From positions 3,965,174 to 4,029,173 of the forward strand of contig OZ240209.1 in assembly GCA_965197465.1 (NCBI GenBank): a stretch of 64,000 bases of DNA. Reading direction: 5' to 3'. Shown in pieces: positions 1,999-62,706 of this stretch. The stretch comes from Candidatus Poribacteria bacterium. GTDB taxonomy: Bacteria > Poribacteria > WGA-4E > JAJDTR01. The notes below the pieces were generated by a model that ran no database searches, was not told the origin of the DNA, and was given only the letters and a program-made list of their open reading frames with translations. Position 1 is the stretch's first letter, and every line of letters begins with the position of its first letter. The translations under genes and the position numbers were made by a program.

Positions 1999-4019
1999 GA
2001 ATCCAGGGCTACTCTTATGAACAAGTCACTGTAGAAGATGTGCAAACCCATCTTTATCCACATCAAGCCGCCATGTACAACGAATGGTCCAATCACACCG
2101 GATTCCTACTCGTGACCAAAACAGGGAGTGGCAAAACACGGGCGACAGCGTTACCCGTACTGAAAAACCATGAATCTGCTGTTTTTGTCTACCCCACAAA
2201 CGCGCTGATTCAAAATCAATCACGGGCTATTCAGCAATTGATGGATGACGAGGGAATAACATATCGGGCGCGGACGCCGGAAACAGCAAACGAAAGGGTG
2301 GGAACTGAAGAATATGAAATCGTTCAAATTAGCTCCCTGACGCTCGCAGCATTTGCAAAGGCGTGGAGAATGGGTGAAAAGCAAAAAGGGGACGCATTGA
2401 TAAAACTAATTGGTCAAGAGAAACGTAAAATTGTATTGATTAACCCCGATATTCTTTATCTTCTGTACTCTTTGCGCTACCGTGGCAGTCCAGAAGTTTT
2501 GTCACATTTTCAAGCATATAAGACCATTGTATTTGACGAATTTCATCTCTACAACGGAGTTGAACTAGCCCACGCGCTTTTCCTCATTTTTTGGGCACAA
2601 CGTATGGGTGCATTCCAACGGGTTGTGTTGCTCTCTGCCACTCCGAATGAAGAGGTCAAAACCTATCTAGATCGACTGCTCAGCCCACTTGTCATTGATG
2701 CTGATGTAACAGTCCCACAACCTATCTGTGGCGAGCGCACGGTCGCCCATGATGTAGAACTCAATGCCTTGCCGGTTGCTCGGGATGTCGTCGAAACAGC
2801 ACAATCAAAGGTCCTTGAACTTCAGAGCAAACTATACCAACTCCAAGCAGAAAACCAAGAAGCAAGCAACACAGAAGATTATGTGCCTTGTGTCGTTATC
2901 CTCAATTCGGTCGTCAACGCCATCGCGCTGGAAGACGCTCTCGTTGAGGCGGGGATACCACGTACAGAAATCGCACCAATTCGCGGGCTTTCAGCACGGA
3001 GTAGTCGAGACGTGAGAGGCAGGATGCTTGTCATCGGTACCGCGGCAATCGAAGTTGGAATCGACTTCAAAACTGACTATCTGATTTTTGAGGCGGGCAA
3101 CCACGCATCGTTCATACAGCGATTTGGACGGCTTGGAAGACATAGCATCGGACAGGCGTTCCTACTCGCTACTCCGCGTGAATGTGAAGCGGTAAAATCA
3201 CTTGGAAATGATATTTCCCGGGACGCTCTAGAGGAGGGTGTCAAAACCATCTATCCCGGACAGGATGCGAAGGGATGGTTTGTTGATACGCTTTGCGGGG
3301 CGTTTACGATACTCGCCCAAGCCGAGAACTTTCGCAGTAGGATTATCGACGATTGGTCTGCTGATGAAACGGTGAAAACTGAAATTGAAACATGGCTAGA
3401 TGCTGCTCTGACAGACTATGCAACAAAGATGCGTCTAACTCAGATGAAACGTGCTCGCTTGAAACTTCGACGTAATCCCACGTGGTTTGAACATTACAAA
3501 GCATTGGACTCATTTCGGACATCGTTACCAAGCATTGAAGTTTGGGATGCACGCGAAAAATTTGAACGCGGGCGAGAACCGTACTACACCGTAGATTTGA
3601 AAACACTTTTAACACGTACGACGGTTCACTGGTCCGAAAAGTATCAGCGAATGGAAGTGAAAAAAGGCTACGATAAATGGCATCAGGTTAATCTGCTAAA
3701 GTCGTTTGATGATGAACATGAGGATGAATGTTGTGGCATGTTTCGGACAACTGCTGATTATCCGAACGGAGAGATGCAATTCATGCAAGAAGGTCATTTG
3801 ACATCGGTCTCACATGTGATGGCAAAACAGAAGTACAAAGAACGTGTTACCGGCCATCTGTTTGTTCTCGCACCGGAAGATTTACGCTACTACTTGGACT
3901 GGCGACTAGCGTGGTTTAGATGCGGATCGCGTGGGAAATTCATCATTGCATTTGATGGGGACGCGCTTTTACTGAAAGCAATCTACGATCGAACAGTGAA
4001 AATGAGAGACGGTACGTAA
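1995..4019 (+). CDS. cas3: Cas3' superfamily-2 helicase, helicase-only with no HD nuclease domain
   Basis: Walker A TKTGSGKTRA sits near the N-terminus, so there is no room for an N-terminal HD. DExH box is VFDEFH. Motif VI is QRFGRLGR. 674 aa. Confidence 0.85.
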   Translation: MRIQGYSYEQVTVEDVQTHLYPHQAAMYNEWSNHTGFLLVTKTGSGKTRATALPVLKNHESAVFVYPTNALIQNQSRAIQQLMDDEGITYRARTPETANERVGTEEYEIVQISSLTLAAFAKAWRMGEKQKGDALIKLIGQEKRKIVLINPDILYLLYSLRYRGSPEVLSHFQAYKTIVFDEFHLYNGVELAHALFLIFWAQRMGAFQRVVLLSATPNEEVKTYLDRLLSPLVIDADVTVPQPICGERTVAHDVELNALPVARDVVETAQSKVLELQSKLYQLQAENQEASNTEDYVPCVVILNSVVNAIALEDALVEAGIPRTEIAPIRGLSARSSRDVRGRMLVIGTAAIEVGIDFKTDYLIFEAGNHASFIQRFGRLGRHSIGQAFLLATPRECEAVKSLGNDISRDALEEGVKTIYPGQDAKGWFVDTLCGAFTILAQAENFRSRIIDDWSADETVKTEIETWLDAALTDYATKMRLTQMKRARLKLRRNPTWFEHYKALDSFRTSLPSIEVWDAREKFERGREPYYTVDLKTLLTRTTVHWSEKYQRMEVKKGYDKWHQVNLLKSFDDEHEDECCGMFRTTADYPNGEMQFMQEGHLTSVSHVMAKQKYKERVTGHLFVLAPEDLRYYLDWRLAWFRCGSRGKFIIAFDGDALLLKAIYDRTVKMRDGT

Positions 4020-10959: not shown

Positions 10960-11024
10960 CTATGGGAACTCTATCGCACTCCCTATCCGTTCGTTTGATC
11001 CCCGATGAAAAGGGGACTGAAATC
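10960..11024 (+). repeat. Orphan degenerate CRISPR repeat CCCGATGAAAAGGGGACTGAAATC fused to an inverted GATCAA/GCGATAG-type module
   Basis: 11001-11024 matches the 3' two-thirds of the array repeat with a few substitutions. It is preceded by CTATCGCACTCCCTATCCGTTCGTTTGATC. Confidence 0.6.
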
Positions 11025-14078: not shown

Positions 14079-14166
14079 GTAGCAACCGACGCCGCGATGA
14101 AAAGCGATCAACTGAGATCAAATGAGCGAATAACGATCAGGCGAATGAAAAATGAGCGCGATAGCA
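14079..14166 (+). repeat. Orphan degenerate CRISPR repeat GTAGCAACCGACGCCGCGATGAAAAGCG followed by GATCAA/GCGATAG modules
   Basis: It shares GTAGCAACC with the array's terminal degenerate repeat (10808) and GCCGCGATGAAAAGCG with the consensus repeat. Confidence 0.6.
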
Positions 14167-15114: not shown

Positions 15115-15581
15115 AACAATAATCAACTGACTGGAAAAGGAAGGAGCAACTGACCAATCAATCAAGTGAACAGCGAGCAGGATAAACTATCGCCTTGGGA
15201 TTTCTATCGCACTCACTATCCGCTCATTTGATCGATAGAGATTCTATGGAGTTCATTACGCGTCGGAAATTCGAATTTCTCTTACATGCGGTACACGCTA
15301 ACTTATCCCGAATCCTGGCATTCGCCTCTACCAACACCGAGGCAGCGAACACACCACGGTGAGCCCCACATATGATGCGCGAAGAAAAGCGAACTTTTTC
15401 GGAACTCGCCGATACATGCTTGAGGGCGCGTCAATACACGCTTCGACCTCAATTTTCGGCTTTACAAGCAAACTCCGCTCATTTGATCGACAGAGAATCG
15501 AGGGCGAATGAGTTCCTACAGTAGTCCAACTGCGATATACATCTTGTACCACTCCAATCAGCGATGTAAGGGAGAATCGAT

Positions 15582-17798: not shown

Positions 17799-17977
17799 CG
17801 AAGGCGATAGCTAATCCCGATAGAAAATTCTTCTCACTATTCTTTCGCTTGATCGCTCGATCTATTCAGTCGTTTAATCTTTTCCAGAGGTGTTGGGTTT
17901 CACTCAAATGTCCGTACTTTCGGGCGAAATGAAATCTCGACAATCATCTTCTGTGTGTGGTTTTTCCCAGTTTTCCG

Positions 17978-18041
17978 TTCAACCCAACCTACGTGCTTGA
18001 CTGGTTTCTGCGTAGTGCGGGGCAAGATGCCCCGCACTACG
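17978..18041. repeat. Copy of the dispersed 16-mer TTCAACCCAACCTACG followed by a 13-bp-stem hairpin (CGTAGTGCGGGGC-AAGAT-GCCCCGCACTACG)
   Basis: The 16-mer recurs at 32905 (rc), 53835, 57480 (rc) and 58005. The hairpin is seen directly at 18011-18041. Confidence 0.6.
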
Positions 18042-21834: not shown

Positions 21835-22095
21835 AACGATCAACTGAGCGGATAATGAAGGCGATAGAAAATTACGTGCGATAGAGATCTTCCCCTCCCC
21901 CGTTTCCCAGCGCGGATCGGGAGACCCAACCCCTAGGTTGGCACTGTCAAATGTCAACGCAACCTAGTACAGCTTGGCGTAATTGCCGTATGAGTTGACG
22001 GTAGGTGCGATCAAGTGACCGATCAACCGAGTGAACAACGAGGGCGATAGTAGATCCCATAGGGAACGCGATAGAGATCCCTTTCCTAATCGCAC
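21835..22095. repeat. Composite intergenic repeat block (GATCAA/GCGATAG mosaic elements G and H)
   Basis: 22000-22095 is CGGTAGGTGCGATCAAGTGACCGATCAAC...GCGATAGTAGATCCC..GCGATAGAGATCCC...TCGCACCG, with short inverted termini. It is a near-duplicate of 38249-38348. Confidence 0.6.
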
Positions 22096-26889: not shown

Positions 26890-27029
26890 AATCTTCTCCT
26901 TGATACCATCGCGATTCGGAGATCGCTCCTATGGATAGATGATGGTAGCATTATTTTGATGGGTCGTCAAGACTACACCGTACCAGTCGTGGTGTGAATG
27001 AGGTCGCGATTCGGAGAGGGATCGAGCAA

Positions 27030-27100
27030 ACGATCAACTGAGTGAATAGCGAAGGCGATAGTATATCTCGTGCGATAGAAGATCCTACCCGTTATCCACT
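27030..27100. repeat. GATCAA/GCGATAG mosaic element (GATCAACTGAGTGAATAGCGAAGGCGATAGTATATCTCGTGCGATAGAAGATCC)
   Basis: Same module set as 17790-17885 and 21835-21900. Confidence 0.55.
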
Positions 27101-31662: not shown

Positions 31663-31909
31663 GATCAAGCGAGTGGATAACGAGCGCGATAGGGATCCCT
31701 CTGCGACCATCAAATCGCAGATGTGCCCTCCCCTGTGCTGTCCCAAGATTGTAGTGGGCATTCACGCTTGTCCCGACTGAACAACGTACAATCTTCGAAT
31801 ATTGTCTGGAGCGGTATCTGTTATAACAGGGTGAACACGGGGGAAGATTCCATCTAAGAAAAGAAATCGGTAATTTGACGATTTGGTAGGTTGAAATCCT
31901 TGCGGGACT

Positions 31910-32815: not shown

Positions 32816-33497
32816 CTGGACGAAGCCTCAAGAAAAGAATAATGAAAGAGCGCGGTGCGTTTAGGGTAGGCTATTAGGGATGATGTATATTGTTTAGTTT
32901 AGTTCGTAGGTTGGGTTTCGCTACATCTGTGTGCACGAGCGAGTCATGGGAAAACTGAATTCTTTTCGGAAACTTGATAGAACTTGGTTGTTGAAGGGAT
33001 TTCTATCGCACTCGCTATCGCACTCGCTATCCAATCGCTTGATCTCAGCGATTTCTGCTTTCGCGGAATGCCGCCACCATCCTCCGAACACGCCGTATCA
33101 GAATTGTAACAAGTACAACGAGCACGACAAATTGCAATACCCGAAGCAGGCTAAGTACCCCGCTGGGCATGTCAACCTCTCTTGATTGCGCCAACCAGAT
33201 TGGAAGAAGCGCGACAGCCGACACGAGCAGTATCCAATTTTCCCAACGATCCCACGTTTTCATGAGAGCAAACCCTCCAAATCAATCTCTATAGTCATTG
33301 CAATTAAGAATTACACATGTGTTTATAACATACCCAATTTCCCACCCATTCCCGTAGGTCGGGCTTCCAGCCCGACCCGCTCAATGGGAAACGTCGTAAA
33401 CCGGGAGATTGTGAGCTAAGTCGAGTCAATCAACGCTCATATGGGTAAATATAAATGCACATGACTATAACTGCTAACGCTTAAACTCGCCATCGGA

Positions 33498-38248: not shown

Positions 38249-38348
38249 CGGTAGGTGCGATCAAGTGACCGAATAGGATCAAACGACCGAATAGGGAGTG
38301 CGATAGTAGATCCCACGCGATAGAGATCCCTCTAACCGCACCGATGAC
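38249..38348. repeat. GATCAA/GCGATAG mosaic element, near-duplicate of 22000-22095
   Basis: CGGTAGGTGCGATCAAGTGACCGAATAGGATCAAACGACC...GCGATAGTAGATCCCACGCGATAGAGATCCCTCTAACCGCACCG. It has inverted termini CGGTAGGTGCG / CGCACCG and four GATC sites. Confidence 0.65.
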
Positions 38349-41589: not shown

Positions 41590-41740
41590 AAGAAATCGCA
41601 ACCGGGAAGGGAACTCTATCGCACTGGGAACTCTATGCGATTTCTATCGTGCTCGTTATTTACTCGCTTGATTCCTCGCTATCTGCTCGGTTGATCTATT
41701 CGGTCGCTTGATCGCTCCTACAGGTACCTACACCTGTAGG
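41590..41740. repeat. GATCAA/GCGATAG mosaic element in reverse orientation, plus the palindrome CCTACAGGTACCTACACCTGTAGG
   Basis: GGGAACTCTATCGCACTGGGAACTCTATGCGATTTCTATCGTGCTCG...CGCTTGATCGCTCC. A 9-bp-arm inverted repeat lies at 41712-41735. Confidence 0.55.
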
Positions 41741-51244: not shown

Positions 51245-51389
51245 TGGTCGTTAAGCATATATTGGCAATCAGTGGTTAGTATAACGTGTGCGACCAAGTA
51301 CGTAGAGAACGCAGATCTGCGTTCCCTACTATCTCAGGTGCATGGGTCCATAAATTTTAGCAATTTCCGGCTTCTAGAAAGGAAAAATA

Positions 51390-53696: not shown

Positions 53697-53919
53697 GTGG
53701 ATAATTATTCACTGCGATTTTATAAATGCGGACCGCGCGATGAAGTGTTGGATTTCACTTGGATTTCGGCACTTTTGATTGAAATCAAATCTCGAAATTC
53801 CTTCTTCTGCATGTGATTTCTCATGATTTTCCATTCAACCCAACCTACATGATGCGATTTGATGATCGAGGTCAGTTTCACGGCAAATGAGGCTACCCAA
53901 ATCGAATTTCAAACAGGCA

Positions 53920-56261: not shown

Positions 56262-57305
56262 CTACGGCATCATACCCGGAATGAGTAACCCTGCGGTTTC
56301 GTCTAAGCCAAACATCACATTCAGGTTCTGCACAACCGCACTCGACGCGCCCTTGCCGAGGTTGTCAATCGCAGACAACACGACGACTCGATTTGTGCGC
56401 ACGTCGACTTCAAGTCCGATATCACAGTAGTTGGTTCCGGCAACCGCTTTTGTCTGCGGGTACTCCCCCTGATCGAGAACACGGACAAAAGGCTCTTTTT
56501 CATAGTATTTTGAATAAATCGCCAACAACGACTCAGTTGAAATATCTGCTTTGAGTTGGAAGTAGAGTGTGCTCAGAATTCCCCGCGTCATCGGAACAAT
56601 GTGGGGCGTAAAGATCGCGCGGATAGTCTCGCCAGCGATCTTGCTCAACTCCTGCTCAATCTCCGGGGTGTGGCGATGCGTGCCGATGTTGTATGCGATA
56701 AAATTCGATTCTCGATTGGGAAAATGTGTCGTTGCGCTGGGGGTGCGCCCCGCGCCGGAGATTCCGGACTTCGAGTCGATTATGATTGAGTCTAATTCAA
56801 CCAAATCTCTGGCAAGCAGCGGCAGCGCGGGGAGAATGGCGCTTGTCGGATAGCACCCGGGATTTGCCACTAGCTCTGCCGTGCGAATCTCGCTTCGATA
56901 AAGTTCCGGCAAACCGTAAACTGCGCGCTCCATCCACTCGGGGTCCGAGTGCTTCACATGATACCATCCCTGATACGTTTCAGGATCGTCCAAACGATAA
57001 TCTGCACTGAAATCAATAACGCGAAGACCCTGTTTTAGAATCTTCGGTACATACGACATGGCAACTTTGTGAGGAACGGAAAGAACAACGACATCTACCC
57101 GATCTCTGAGCGTCTCAATCTCCAACGGCTCGAATTCAAGGTCGATTAAGTCACGAAGGTTCGGCATTATCCGGTCTACCCGCTGGCCAGGATACGTTTC
57201 CGATGTGACCATCTCGATTTTTAACTCGCCCGGATGGCTAATCAGGAAACGCAACAATTCACTGCTCGTATAGCCTGATGCCCCCACAATGCCAACCTTT
57301 ACCAT
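56262..57305 (-). CDS. argC: N-acetyl-gamma-glutamyl-phosphate reductase
   Basis: VGIVGASGYTSSELLR and catalytic Cys region PGCYPTS. GAGGAG RBS. The ATG at 57305 is preferred. Confidence 0.9.
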   Translation of the reverse strand: MVKVGIVGASGYTSSELLRFLISHPGELKIEMVTSETYPGQRVDRIMPNLRDLIDLEFEPLEIETLRDRVDVVVLSVPHKVAMSYVPKILKQGLRVIDFSADYRLDDPETYQGWYHVKHSDPEWMERAVYGLPELYRSEIRTAELVANPGCYPTSAILPALPLLARDLVELDSIIIDSKSGISGAGRTPSATTHFPNRESNFIAYNIGTHRHTPEIEQELSKIAGETIRAIFTPHIVPMTRGILSTLYFQLKADISTESLLAIYSKYYEKEPFVRVLDQGEYPQTKAVAGTNYCDIGLEVDVRTNRVVVLSAIDNLGKGASSAVVQNLNVMFGLDETAGLLIPGMMP

Positions 57306-57479
57306 TGGGATTAGCGCTCCTCGTGTTGTACCTAATTTTAGAATACCGGTGGGACTGAACCTTCTGTGACCGGTGAAGAATTGTAGCATTCAGAATTTCG
57401 GATGTCAAGACCAATGCCAAATGCCGGCGGCGAAGTAGAAAACATTGCCATTTATGGAGAGTTTATCGCGCCTTTAGCG

Positions 57480-58020
57480 CGTAGGTTGGGTTGAACGGGA
57501 CTAACCAACAAAACCGGAATGACACATAGCGGTAGGAGCGATCAAGCGAACGATCAACTGAGATCAACCGAACGGACAGTGAAGGAGCAAACGAGTGGAC
57601 AATGAGTGCGATAGTAGATCCTGATAGAGATATTTCAGTGAATGCGATAGAGATCCCTCTCCGAATCGCGACTCGTACGTGCGCTACATCAGGAATCGGA
57701 ATTCCCTCCTACAGCCGTAGACCGTTTCTCCTGCCTCTTTCTACTGGCAAAAGAAGACCTGAACGTATCTATAGGCGAACACTCTTTGACTCTGTTGGGT
57801 TGAACGACATTAACCAATATAACCCGGCATTACGCGCGGCTTAAAGAGTTTAATTCCGCTTGAACTCTAACACATCTAGTGAAACCCAACTGGATAATCA
57901 ACACGCGGGTTGGATTGAGGTGTTGGGTTTCGTTCAATTCCGGTTCAAGTCCGCCCCATTGAAAAACAGAACTTGATTGTGCTATAGCGATTCGCATTTT
58001 ACCACTCAACCCAACCTACG
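57480..58020. mobile_element. 541-bp non-coding element bounded by perfect 15-16-bp inverted repeats CGTAGGTTGGGTTGA(A) / (T)TCAACCCAACCTACG. MITE-like. Contains GATC-rich mosaic modules and nested hairpins.
   Basis: TIRs at 57480-57495 and 58005-58020. The interior 57529-57672 is a GATCAA/GCGATAG element. 57889-57940 holds the nested inverted repeats GAAACCCAAC...GTTGGGTTTC. Confidence 0.35.
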
Positions 58021-58179
58021 GACTGTTGGTATTACCCTCGACTACATATAAAGGTTCAATCCCGGGGGGAATATGTGGTAAAATCAGGGGAGGCACCATG
58101 CTACGGACGAGCGGTGTCAAGTTTCGCGATTATATTATCGAATTTCCTTGACGATGGCAAGGGAACGTTATTGTAGGGA

Positions 58180-58370
58180 TCAATCTACCGACTGATTAAG
58201 GAGGGATCAAGCGAATGAATTATGAGTGCGATAGAACTCCCATAGCAAATCCCTCAACTGACCGAAAAAGGTTCAAGCAAGCGATTAGCGAGTGTGATAG
58301 CAAATCCCGTGCGACAGAGTTCCCGTAGCGAATGCAATAGAAATCCCTCGCAATTCCCTAGAAGAGTCCT
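58180..58370. repeat. Tandem ~20-bp units of the GCGATAGnnnATCCC module (five units) upstream of the ARH gene
   Basis: GAGTGCGATAGAACTCCC / ATAGCAAATCCC / GTGTGATAGCAAATCCC / GTGCGACAGAGTTCCC / GCAATAGAAATCCC. Confidence 0.55.
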
Positions 58371-58454
58371 GCAATATCAGATTATCGCAGAATATCATCA
58401 TTTCTGCGTTTTGCGAAAGTTCTGATCATCTTACAATACGGGAGGTATTTACTT

Positions 58455-60572
58455 TTGATGATACCCAATGACTATGAGGAGCGCCTATACGCCGGCGTTC
58501 TTGGCAAGATAATCGGCGTCTACTTGGGACGCCCCTTTGAAAACTGGACGTACGACCAAATCATGGCTAATCTCGGAGAAATCAACTACTATGTCCACGA
58601 ACGGCTGAACAAGCCGCTGATTGTCACGGACGACGACATCTCCGGCACCTTTACTTTTTTCCGGGCGTTGGAAGATTATGGTGACAACCGCGAACTCACG
58701 GCGGAACAGATTGGCCAGTCTTGGCTCAATTACATTATCGAAGGGCGGACTATCCTCTGGTGGGGCGGCATGGGCAATTCAACGGAGCATACCGCCTTTT
58801 TGCGCCTCAAGGCAGGCACACCCGCGCCTCAAAGCGGCTCAATCGAGTTGAACAGTCAAGTCGTCGCCGAGCAGATTGGCTCACAGATATTTATCGACGC
58901 TTGGGGGATGGCGTGTCCCGGCAACCCCGAACTTGCCGCTGAATTTGCGCGCAGAGCCGCGAGCGTTAGCCATGACGGCGAAGCCATTTACGGTGCACAA
59001 GTAGTCGCCGCGATTGAGGCACAGGCATTCGCGGAATCCAACATTGACAACCTGTTGGATACGGCGGTCGGTTTCATTCCCAAAGATTCGGTTATATACC
59101 GACTGATTGATGATCTTCGCGACTGGCATCAGCGGGACGGCGATTGGCGTCTGACGCGGGAGCGTATTGTAGCCTCTTACGGCTATGACAAGTACGGTGG
59201 CAACGTGCACATGGTGCCGAATCACGCCTTGATTGTGCTCGCTCTGCTCTACAGCGAGGACGACTTCCAGCGCGCCCTGACCATTGTGAACACGGCGGGG
59301 TGGGATACCGACTGCAATTCCGGAAACGTTGGATGCATTATGGGAATCAAGAACGGATTGGCTGGAATTGACGCCGGTCCCGATTGGCGCCGCCCTGTTG
59401 CGGACCGGCTTTATATTTCTGCCGCCGACGGAGGGCGTGCGGTCACGGATGCGGTGCGCGAGACATATATAATCAGTAAGGCAGCGCGGACGCTGGCGAA
59501 TCAACCGATTGAATCCCCCAAGAACGGAGCGCGATTCCACTTTGAGCTTCCGGGGTCGGTGCAAGGGTTCACGCTTGAGGAAAGCCCGGAAAGCGACGGA
59601 ACCGCGGTGATTGAAAACGTCGTTGGCAATAGCGTCAACGGCACCCGAAGCTTGGCTATCCGATACAATCAACTGGCGGTCGGCAGAATGGCGCGCGTGG
59701 CAACGCCGACCTTCATTCCGCCCGAAGCCATTGATATGCCGGGGTATCAGTTGATGGCGTCGCCCACACTCTATTCGGGGCAAACCGTTCAAGCGCGCCT
59801 AACCGCAGACAAGGAAAACTGCCAGACGGTGACGTGTACGCTTTACATTCAGGTCTACGGAGCGGATGACGCTTTGGTCATGCGGCGAGGTGAGACGCGT
59901 GAGGTTTCACCGGGAGGCGAGGCGTTGTTCAACTGGAATGTGGATCTGACGGATGGCGCCCCGATTGCGGCTGTGGGAATCGAGCTGAGTTCGGACGCCG
60001 GAGCGTCCGGCGTGGTATACCTTGATTACCTGACTTGGAAGGGCACGCCGGAACTTTCGCTAATCAAACCGTCTTCTGGCGGCACGATGTGGAAACGGGC
60101 ATGGATCGACGCTGTCGACAACGCGATTACCAGCAGAGCAGACGTAGCGGCCTATCGAATCATGCAAAATCACGACACGGGTTTATTTATTCAGGGAACT
60201 CGCGAGTGGGAGAACTATTCCTTTTCCGCTTTAGTCAATCCGCATCTTGCTAGCGAGGCTGGAATCGCGGTGTGTGTTCAAGGCCTCAAGCGATATTACG
60301 CCCTCCTGCTTTGCGATGACGGGAAGCTGCGCCTAATTAAGGAACTTGACGGACGGACAGAGCTTGCGGCGAAAAACTTCGCTTGGGATTGGGATACGGA
60401 CTACGAACTGCGCTTGGAGGCGGCGGGCGCAAACTTGGTTGCCTTCATTGACGGCGATGTTGTCTTCGAGTATTCGGATACAAATCATCCGCTGTTAACC
60501 GGCAGTGTCGCTCTGGTTTGCACCGAAGGCAGGGTTGACTTTCGGGATGTCTCCGTTGGCGGGAGGGGGTAG
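58455..60572 (+). CDS. ADP-ribosylglycohydrolase-family domain fused to a C-terminal beta-sandwich (LamG/DUF1080-like) domain
   Basis: N-terminal GVLGKIIGVYLGRPFE matches ARH-family start motifs. 705 aa. Confidence 0.65.
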   Translation: MMIPNDYEERLYAGVLGKIIGVYLGRPFENWTYDQIMANLGEINYYVHERLNKPLIVTDDDISGTFTFFRALEDYGDNRELTAEQIGQSWLNYIIEGRTILWWGGMGNSTEHTAFLRLKAGTPAPQSGSIELNSQVVAEQIGSQIFIDAWGMACPGNPELAAEFARRAASVSHDGEAIYGAQVVAAIEAQAFAESNIDNLLDTAVGFIPKDSVIYRLIDDLRDWHQRDGDWRLTRERIVASYGYDKYGGNVHMVPNHALIVLALLYSEDDFQRALTIVNTAGWDTDCNSGNVGCIMGIKNGLAGIDAGPDWRRPVADRLYISAADGGRAVTDAVRETYIISKAARTLANQPIESPKNGARFHFELPGSVQGFTLEESPESDGTAVIENVVGNSVNGTRSLAIRYNQLAVGRMARVATPTFIPPEAIDMPGYQLMASPTLYSGQTVQARLTADKENCQTVTCTLYIQVYGADDALVMRRGETREVSPGGEALFNWNVDLTDGAPIAAVGIELSSDAGASGVVYLDYLTWKGTPELSLIKPSSGGTMWKRAWIDAVDNAITSRADVAAYRIMQNHDTGLFIQGTREWENYSFSALVNPHLASEAGIAVCVQGLKRYYALLLCDDGKLRLIKELDGRTELAAKNFAWDWDTDYELRLEAAGANLVAFIDGDVVFEYSDTNHPLLTGSVALVCTEGRVDFRDVSVGGRG

Positions 60573-60615: not shown

Positions 60616-60643
60616 GTAGGGAATAACGATCGTTATTCCCTAC
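60616..60643. repeat. Perfect 28-bp palindrome GTAGGGAATAACGATCGTTATTCCCTAC centred on GATC
   Basis: The reverse complement is identical. It lies 44 nt after the ARH stop. An imperfect copy is at 24145-24172. Confidence 0.7.
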
Positions 60644-60796
60644 AAGCACCTTGCAACATCAAATCATCACAGAACATCATTATTTCTGAATTTGGCGTAA
60701 ATTCACCTTCAATAATTTGAGCGTATCTTTCAAAGGCTGGTGCGCAGTGCGCACCCTACAAGAGCATGAGTTAGATGATTTGAGCCGTTGGTCCGC

Positions 60797-62615: not shown

Positions 62616-62706
62616 AGGGTTTTTCCAGTAAAGGCTGGTGGGATTTCTATCGCACTTCCTAGTCGGTCGCTTGATCGCATTGCACACCCTACAGGAGTTT
62701 CACCGC

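Follow-up and report, generated by a model that had tools for sequence, protein, structure and literature searches.

The 15-nt motif repeated in inverted orientation at the two ends of positions 57480-58020 is very probably the GTAG-tagged end of a family of REP (repetitive extragenic palindrome) sequences, the cognate repeats of one lineage of REP-associated tyrosine transposases (RAYT, or TnpA_REP). RAYTs are HUH/Y1 enzymes related to the transposase of IS200. This reading rests on the anatomy of the repeated units, the co-variation of their ends, the lack of a target-site duplication, the association with RAYT genes, and the homology of the RAYT to PDB 4ER8. The segment belongs to the window, by which we mean the whole stretch of 64,000 nucleotides analysed here. 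It was originally predicted to be a 541-bp MITE with 15-16-bp TIRs and a classical transposase, all other copies of the motif being solo-TIR relics. From that prediction we retain a dispersed, non-coding, and probably mobile family, but neither the 541-bp unit, nor the TIRs, nor the mechanism.

According to our proposal, the units are either single or joined in inverted pairs whose tags point outward (REPINs), the latter being able to fold as one hairpin. By analogy with TnpA_REP from E. coli (PMC3479197, PMC8266576), the RAYT would bind the folded REP on single-stranded DNA, recognizing the GTAG together with the stem and its loop edges. It would then cut and rejoin the DNA nearby, and the REPs would be spread or rearranged without target-site duplication; catalysis by the RAYT would follow from this analogy, as would any present mobility of the copies. 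Of the two elements in the argC-ARH spacer, the singleton (57481-57510) would be old and the pair (57790-58019) younger, their tagged ends facing each other, 540 bp apart, by chance.

The arms CGTAGGTTGGGTTGA (57480-57494) and TCAACCCAACCTACG (58006-58020) are 100% complementary, with 511 nt between them, and the predicted exact inverted copies at the borders of the segment are thus real over 15 nt. Throughout the 64-kb window, the 16-mer TTCAACCCAACCTACG has 5 matches with up to 3 mismatches against 0.31 expected, a number reached in none of 100 shuffles, and the 11-mer AACCCAACCTA has 6 matches against 0.60 expected. The dispersed copies were recovered at 17978 (plus strand, exact), at 53834 (plus strand, one mismatch; noted at 53835), and at 32905 (minus strand, three mismatches, with the final 13 bases intact). 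As for the two variants that had been named, the one at 57790 on the plus strand is a real copy (GTTGGGTTGAACG, without GTAG), whereas the one at 21920 shares only the 8-mer ACCCAACC and lies outside the family as defined. Isolated copies do exist, as the notion of solo-TIR relics supposed, but most of the 'solo' copies are complete units of ~101 nt. Altogether, four REP units of the window are full, a fifth, the left 'TIR', is short or decayed, and a solo tag completes the set, which amounts to about 6 copies per 64 kb. Its features are the following:

57481-57510, plus strand: REP singleton E, the predicted left 'TIR', with GTAG tag at 57481-57484, arm GTTGGGTT at 57485-57492, loop edge GAACGG, and a weak near arm TAACCAAC at 57502-57509.
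57530-57660, plus strand: GATC/GCGATAG-rich module M1, from a separate Poribacteria-specific intergenic repeat family and no part of the REP.
57790-57890, plus strand: long-loop REP unit D, 101 nt, left half of the inverted pair, with the tag decayed to CTCT (57790-57793), arm GTTGGGTT at 57794-57801, and far arm AACCCAAC at 57883-57890.
57891-57921, no strand: 31-nt spacer between both units of the pair.
57922-58019, minus strand: long-loop REP unit C, 98 nt, right half of the pair and predicted right 'TIR', with far arm GTTGGGTT at 57922-57929, arm AACCCAAC at 58008-58015, and tag at 58016-58019 (GTAG on the minus strand).
58170-58350, plus strand: GATC/GCGATAG-rich module M2, of the same family as M1 and unrelated to the REP.
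17892-17992, minus strand: long-loop REP unit A, 101 nt, a singleton with the consensus at both ends.
53747-53848, minus strand: long-loop REP unit B, 102 nt, a singleton between convergent genes, also present in the sister strain L200.
32906-32922, plus strand: solo GTAG tag and arm F (GTAGGTTGGGTTTCGCT), for which no far arm was found.
18012-18040, no strand: symmetric GTAG-tagged palindrome of another sequence family (GTAGTGCGGGGCA-AGA-TGCCCCGCACTAC).

The last of these features is the 13-bp-stem hairpin predicted to follow the copy at 17978, and reads GTAGTGCGGGGCAAGATGCCCCGCACTAC. The nested hairpin GAAACCCAAC/GTTGGGTTTC was likewise found, at 57881-57890 and 57922-57931, and results from units C and D facing each other with 31 nt between them. 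Unit D has three mismatches at its tag end and none at its far end. Singleton E, over 45 nt, resembles the tag end of D (84% over 31 nt) and its hairpin prediction is weak; it may be a decayed unit of ~93 nt with its far arm, AACCGAAC, at 57566-57573.

The argC-ARH spacer covers 57306-58454 (1149 nt), between argC, whose product has Semialdhyde_dh domains, and the gene for a protein with an ADP-ribosylglycohydrolase domain. It had been described as built almost entirely of repeats, but REP units and GATC/GCGATAG modules make up about half of it. The GATC-rich modules noticed inside the segment are present, although as members of an unrelated repeat family rather than as parts of one element. 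The segment is gene-free as predicted, its longest ORF (57602-57844, 80 aa) being without Pfam match. The units were also considered as genes for a small protein and rejected as such: unit A has an open frame (MLGFTQ...VQPNLRA), but B and C contain stops, and the lengths are not multiples of three.

Once the copies are aligned with their flanks, the repeated unit is seen to span ~101 nt, 5'-GTTGGGTTTCRCT...(~70 nt)...CCGYTCAACCCAACCTAC-3', with complementary ends; on the opposite strand the GTAG tag comes first, followed by an arm of 8 bp and, beyond a long loop, by the complement of that arm. In the window copies, each 3' motif pairs with GTGTTGGGTTTC ~90 nt upstream. A pattern scan of one genome per species, which favoured conserved ends and allowed unit lengths of 80-120 nt, listed at least 117 loci, 91 of them from Candidatus Poribacteria MAGs and the others from Desulfobacterota, cyanobacteria, and Chloroflexota. 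The genes of the window itself have 73-75% DNA identity to Poribacteria loci, and its ArgC is 67-69% identical to proteins named as from Poribacteria. Among the matches listed there are at least 171 oriented units in 0.95 Mb; their lengths peak at 100-103 nt, their conservation reaches past the bases fixed by the search pattern at both unit ends, and 162 of 171 are intergenic. Poribacterial units, those of the window included, measure 96-105 nt, of which ~70 nt separate the loop edges (loop of ~70-85 nt).

The stem consists of 8 bp, followed by a T-C/C-T mismatch of 2 nt and two further base pairs, and its ends co-vary. The pair involving position 11 is A-T in 95 units, G-C in 53, A-C in 3, and G-T in 5 (Fisher 6e-32), the pair involving position 12 is C-G in 143 and T-A in 8, and there are also variants compensated over the whole arm, such as GTCGGGTT/AACCCGAC. 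The co-variation at position 11 largely splits two sub-lineages and may thus reflect few independent events. Contrary to the ends, the interiors are poorly conserved and fall mostly into singletons on BLAST clustering; sub-families of interiors can be discerned by eye only and recur in particular pairings. Copies compared within the same genome are 66-86% identical with unrelated flanks, a divergence suggesting that most copies may be old and immobile.

Units of this kind could also be thought of as structured RNAs (sRNA genes, UTR elements, or terminators) rather than as repeats at the DNA level. Ends that co-vary as base pairs would be expected of such RNAs, every copy in the window is co-oriented with an adjacent gene, and REPs elsewhere in bacteria affect mRNA stability (PMC3733652). 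However, across 171 units among the matches listed, 44 are co-directional with their flanking genes and 42 opposite; given this lack of bias, the co-orientation seen in the window is a matter of chance. The 8-bp stem closing a loop of ~70-85 nt is weak, six single units fold no better than their shuffles (z from -1.1 to +0.8), and neither the poorly conserved interiors nor the lack of a T-run terminator speaks for an RNA. Rfam gave no match at gathering score in the window and nothing relevant at E values up to 10 in 57300-58480. We therefore regard an RNA-level origin of the units as improbable.

The two ends of the unit are of two fixed types. The tagged one, GTAG-GTTGGGTT-GARCGG, occurs 193 times among the matches listed, and the other one reads NNNN-GTTGGGTT-TCRCT; when all GTTGGGTT cores among these matches are considered, mixed forms are absent. 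At the untagged end, the outer (left) flank is not conserved, nor is there a conserved target tetranucleotide. It was this pair of end types, without mixed forms, that ruled out an invertible segment and brought the GTAG to notice, a GTAG at the foot of a palindrome being a hallmark of REP sequences (PMC3733652; PMC3479197).

The same ends bear on whether the motif marks sites of a site-specific recombinase, as in invertible segments or integron attC-like sites. The core consensus of attC sites is RYYYAAC ... GTTRRRY, in arrays located beside an integrase. GTTGGGT and ACCCAAC in the motif fit GTTRRRY and RYYYAAC, respectively, and inverted repeats around a variable interior of fixed length would suit such a system. 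Nevertheless, the order of the cores is reversed, with GTTRRRY first and RYYYAAC last, and the recombined ends that an inverton would leave are lacking, GTAG always going with GARCGG and the untagged end always with TCRCT among the matches listed. Neither cassette arrays nor an integrase accompany the copies, which are scattered among housekeeping genes, and we give recombinase sites practically no credence.

Where two units lie together, they are arranged in a characteristic way. Among the matches listed, 35 pairs have their tags outward, with ~225-250 bp overall, against 5 in tandem and none with the tags inward; the spacer within these 35 pairs measures 21-54 nt, with a mode of 26-28. An A-T unit is joined with a G-C unit in 18 of 34 pairs, which can be regarded as heterodimers. 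The intact dimer of locus L003 is predicted to fold as a single long hairpin, with an outer stem of 19 bp and an inner stem of 10 bp (z -5.8, equalled in 0 of 200 shuffles). The D and C pair of the window would also form one hairpin with outer and inner 10-bp stems, although a weaker one (z -1.1), because the tag of D is decayed.

The pairing also bears on the case for a MITE at 57480-58020. In its favour, the 15-nt inverted repeat is exact, the segment is gene-free, the motif is dispersed, and the 539-nt arrangement recurs in L200, a sister strain with 98% identity to the window. Against it, the two 'TIRs' belong to different elements, the singleton at 57481-57510 and the pair at 57790-58019, and what lies between them is a patchwork of repeat units of two unrelated families. 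If the segment were one element, paired 16-mers should recur at a MITE-like spacing; among the 83 outward tag pairs in the 0.95 Mb of matches listed, the spacings cluster at 33, 57-64, 86, 128, and 224-249 nt, and 539 nt occurs once, in this window. Neither does the segment have a target-site duplication, and in the whole set of matches listed, flanks compared for k = 2-8 do not match in excess, whatever the boundary offset.

The history of the spacer tells the same. L200 has the same arrangement, including the 539-nt tag spacing, whereas the relative L198 (ArgC 91% identical) retains E in the orthologous position, the flanks being equally conserved, but has neither D nor C, most of the remainder of its spacer being unrelated to that of the window. 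The left end of the supposed MITE thus exists there without the right one. As L198 has E without the D-C pair, the two tagged ends have separate histories: E, also kept in L200, is old, the D-C pair is younger or lineage-specific, and the parts of the 541-bp 'element' do not share one origin. In a third relative, L199, another copy is located closer to the promoter. The search for empty sites found no clean one among relatives L198-L202: L198 and L199 differ from the window by a complex replacement of most of the spacer, the sister strain L201 has 32877-33042 (copy F) replaced by ~3 kb with two insertion sequences, and L200 and L202 are too similar to the window for the comparison. The spacer of L198 also contains a 179-aa ORF, which is not a RAYT and looks spurious. 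Lastly, with tag pairs 800-3682 nt apart left aside, no related DDE insertion sequence was found, and the sole enzyme recurrent at the motif is a Y1 RAYT. Because the RAYT is a single-strand HUH tyrosine transposase and not a DDE enzyme, REP/REPIN fits better than MITE, and we hold the MITE to be extremely unlikely.

The RAYT was found by tblastn with an E. coli RayT probe sequence, later validated against PDB 4ER8. Among the matches listed, this probe yielded two RAYT genes in Poribacteria loci, L052 and L035. The gene in L052 (3157-3696) encodes a 179-aa protein with the Pfam domain Y1_Tnp, which matches PDB 4ER8 'TnpArep' at E 1.3e-39 with the HxH and Tyr motifs conserved in the alignment; it is 46% identical to the E. 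coli RayT probe. It lies 73 nt from three units of the family, whereas the RAYT gene of L035 is flanked by a different GTAG palindrome, GTAGGGTGGGCACTGCCCACC. A copy of this L035-type palindrome is also present in the window, at ~60739-60759. By contrast with the RayT probe, an IS200 TnpA probe had no match in the Poribacteria loci among the matches listed. When all ORFs of the at least 117 loci were clustered, generic paralogue families alone recurred among the neighbouring proteins.

The association becomes clearer in the 80 metagenome RAYT loci fetched with the L052 protein. RAYTs at least 56% identical to it are preceded, within 160 nt, by an exact GTAGGTTGGGTT in 20 of 28 cases and followed by an inverted GTAGGTTGGGTT in 20 of 33, while those 47-55% identical have it in 3 of 44 and 4 of 43, respectively, and carry related heads instead (GTAGGGTGGGTG, GTAGGGTGGATT, GTAGGATGGGTG, GTAGGTCGGGTT). 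The flanks of these metagenome RAYT genes are classical REPs of ~33 nt, such as GTAGGTTGGGTTGAGGGAAACGAAACCCAACA, and the complete genome of Halotia branconii (CP124543) has dimers of short REPs on both sides of its RAYT. In the Poribacterial RAYT loci L203, L204, and L205, fetched by exact protein, it is the long units of ~101 nt that stand on both sides. A RAYT flanked by REPs of the family is seen in L052, L203, L204, L205, and L206, and for most of the metagenome RAYTs that are at least 56% identical. NCBI and UniRef give the name 'REP-associated tyrosine transposase' to proteins of several cyanobacteria with 64-70% identity, and the same REP head, together with RAYTs 64-70% identical, is common to Poribacteria, Cyanobacteria, Desulfobacterota, and Chloroflexota.

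Since RAYT genes are bordered by a GTAG-first REP upstream and an inverted REP downstream, and the facing tags in the argC-ARH spacer have this very orientation, they could be taken to mark the site of a lost RAYT gene. We judge this highly improbable. The 64-kb window holds no RAYT gene or relic, and no detectable coding remnant remains between the tags, the best tblastn match inside 57300-58460 having an E value of 3.1. Furthermore, 539 nt would not accommodate a gene of 540 nt together with its usual flanks of 85-220 nt, the interior is taken up by unit D and a GATC module, and the L198 spacer is likewise without a RAYT.

The REP family exists in two forms. The basic REP consists of GTAG, the arm GTTGGGTT, the loop edge GARCG, the loop, the edge RYGA, and the arm AACCCAAC. 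In the short form, the loop has ~9-15 nt and the hairpin ~33 nt, and this is the form of cyanobacteria, Desulfobacterota, and many metagenome contigs. In Poribacteria, the tag, the two arms, and the two loop edges are all retained, but ~70 nt separate one edge from the other. Among the matches listed, 127 of 136 Poribacterial units have no extra internal arms, whereas 26 of the 27 units from other phyla are composites of short REPs, the exception being one Chloroflexia unit. From these sequences, the long loop appears specific to Poribacteria. The size given for REPs (20-60 bp, loop of 2-20 nt) excludes the Poribacterial units and includes the 33-nt form found elsewhere; the Poribacterial unit is classified here as a long-loop variant of the REP.

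A bolder reading would see in it a distinct Poribacterial REP architecture, with a length-constrained interior of ~70 nt, sub-families, and preferential heterodimers, in which the interior would possibly be useful to the host (as promoter, insulator, or RNA signals), along with a sharing of heads and RAYTs across phyla by transfer or by extreme conservation of the protein-DNA code. We consider this rather unlikely. REPIN-RAYT systems are thought to be mostly vertically inherited.

The practical consequence for annotation is the removal of one supposed new MITE. In its place, Poribacteria and other phyla receive a recognition rule: GTAG plus GTTGGGTT, followed by AACCCAAC either ~90 nt or ~10-15 nt away. 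One RAYT clade with the same head across phyla, next to clades with stepwise-altered heads, offers a data set for the protein-DNA code, and a REP that tolerates ~70 nt inserted between its loop edges without losing these edges, the stem, or the tag points to the parts that the enzyme probably reads. These uncultivated sponge symbionts have dense populations of such elements, plus at least one other abundant intergenic repeat family.

The published hallmarks of these systems are GTAG-tagged REPs, a predominance of head-head dimers, and a RAYT flanked by REPs (PMC3733652; PMC3116915). Like the E. coli REP/BIME and the P. fluorescens REPINs, the Poribacterial repeats have a GTAG at the foot of an imperfect palindrome and are extragenic, numerous, and without target-site duplication (PMC3479197, PMC3116915, PMC8266576). 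As in E. coli and Pseudomonas, inverted doublets can fold as one hairpin, and inverted REPs stand on either side of the transposase gene. What PMC3733652 calls 'head-head dimers' and PMC3116915 calls 'REPINs' are such pairs with outward tags, and the E. coli dimers, made of units with different loops, resemble the A-T/G-C heterodimers. The differences with E. coli and Pseudomonas lie in the REP sequence itself (GTAGGTTGGGTT...) and in a REP head common to at least four phyla; compared to Pseudomonas, one Poribacterial unit (~101 nt) is also as long as a whole REPIN, its dimer reaching ~235 nt.

Closest to the short form are the cyanobacterial GTAG-tagged families GTAG-12, -15, and -16 of Di Nocera et al. 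2013, which occur predominantly as head-head dimers (PMC3733652). The loops of the GTAG families described there have 2-20 nt, or up to 27, GTAG-15 having 'large loops, 9-15 bp'. The 33-nt form in Scytonema, Leptolyngbya, Hormoscilla, and Halotia resembles GTAG-15 in its GTAG tag, 8-bp stem, and loop of 9-15 nt. The identity of both is a lead drawn from a comparison by description, the supplements of PMC3733652 containing no GTTGGGTT string. The same paper makes no mention of Poribacteria or of a ~101-nt form, and a literature search with the motif strings returned chance primer matches alone, none of them in a REP context.

With IS200/IS605 and their non-autonomous derivatives (PATEs), the family shares an HUH Y1 transposase, the recognition of single-stranded hairpins, the lack of target-site duplication, and asymmetric ends; it differs from them in having no conserved target tetranucleotide at the untagged end. 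The repeats do not enclose the RAYT gene to form a mobile unit with it, and the gene is normally single-copy (PMC5581495). Classical MITEs (Correia, ERIC, RUP, Nezha) are equally small, intergenic, and hairpin-forming with inverted termini, whereas the repeats described here lack a target-site duplication, have poorly conserved interiors, and are associated with a Y1 enzyme. The REP/REPIN-RAYT system is thus a known kind of system, to which the Poribacterial family adds a variant without overturning its current understanding.

Between argC and the singleton palindrome REP E lies a strong sigma-70-like promoter match (57380-57408, minus strand; TTGACA-17-TACAAT with an upstream TG, 11/12), whose hexamers are kept in two relatives, L198 and L199, in the orthologous spacer between argC and the ADP-ribosylglycohydrolase-domain gene. 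This is likely the argC promoter, so that the REPs would be located upstream of it. In L198, the orthologous spacer also contains a called ORF (2503-3042, minus strand) of 179 aa, the length of a RAYT. It was rejected as such and is probably a spurious gene call, since its translation is low-complexity and unrelated.

The window additionally contains a second family of dispersed intergenic repeats, rich in GATC and GCGATAG and unrelated to the REPs, with the approximate consensus GGTAGG-GCGATCAAGCGA-CGATCAACTGAG...GGCGATAGTAGATCCC..GCGATAGAGATCCCTC. Allowing up to 2 mismatches, GCGATAGAGATCCC from this family matches 16 times in the window and, among the loci listed, in 24 of the 91 from Poribacteria versus 2 of the 26 from other phyla.

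GATC/GCGATAG copies in the window (approximate positions)
10960-11010, minus strand
14100-14165
15190-15220, minus strand
21840-21890
21998-22080
27020-27090
31663-31700
33000-33050, minus strand
38250-38340
41620-41720, minus strand
57530-57660
58170-58350
62650-62690, minus strand

Further GTAG-tagged palindromes with differing stems (GTAGTGCGGGGCA..., GTAGGGTGCGCACTGCGCACC, GTAGGTCGGGCTTCCAGCCCGACC and GTAGGGAATAACGATCGTTATTCCCTAC) are also present. Several REP families appear to coexist in the genome, and palindromes of the GTAGGGTGCGCAC type match the REPs flanking a second RAYT (L035, 5565-6140).

GTAG palindromes with other stems in the window
18012-18040
33354-33380
51302-51329
60616-60643
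about 60739-60759, minus strand

Elsewhere, REPs occur in tandem or nested arrangements. Directly 5' of the Poribacterial RAYT gene of L205, a 185-nt REP-containing unit is repeated in tandem in about seven copies (about 1770-2960), and REP fragments of about 29-32 nt are tandemly amplified in Scytonema (L067) and Leptolyngbya (L009). Desulfobacterales carry a nested 128-nt form (GTAG-arm, 9 nt, arm, about 65 nt, arm', 9 nt, arm'-CTAC), which is an alternative route to a larger element using the same arms.

Copies of the 128-nt nested form
L001 6376-6503
L014 7236-7363
L070 759-886
L070 6936-7063
L098 3527-3654

In a 99.5%-identical strain (L201), window positions 32877-33042 are replaced by about 3 kb (L201 11717-14698) bearing two insertion sequences, DDE_Tnp_1 and IS3-type rve, in place of the solo REP F and its adjoining GATC module; the neighboring PfkB gene is split. 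REPs have been reported as targets of insertion sequences (PMC3116915).
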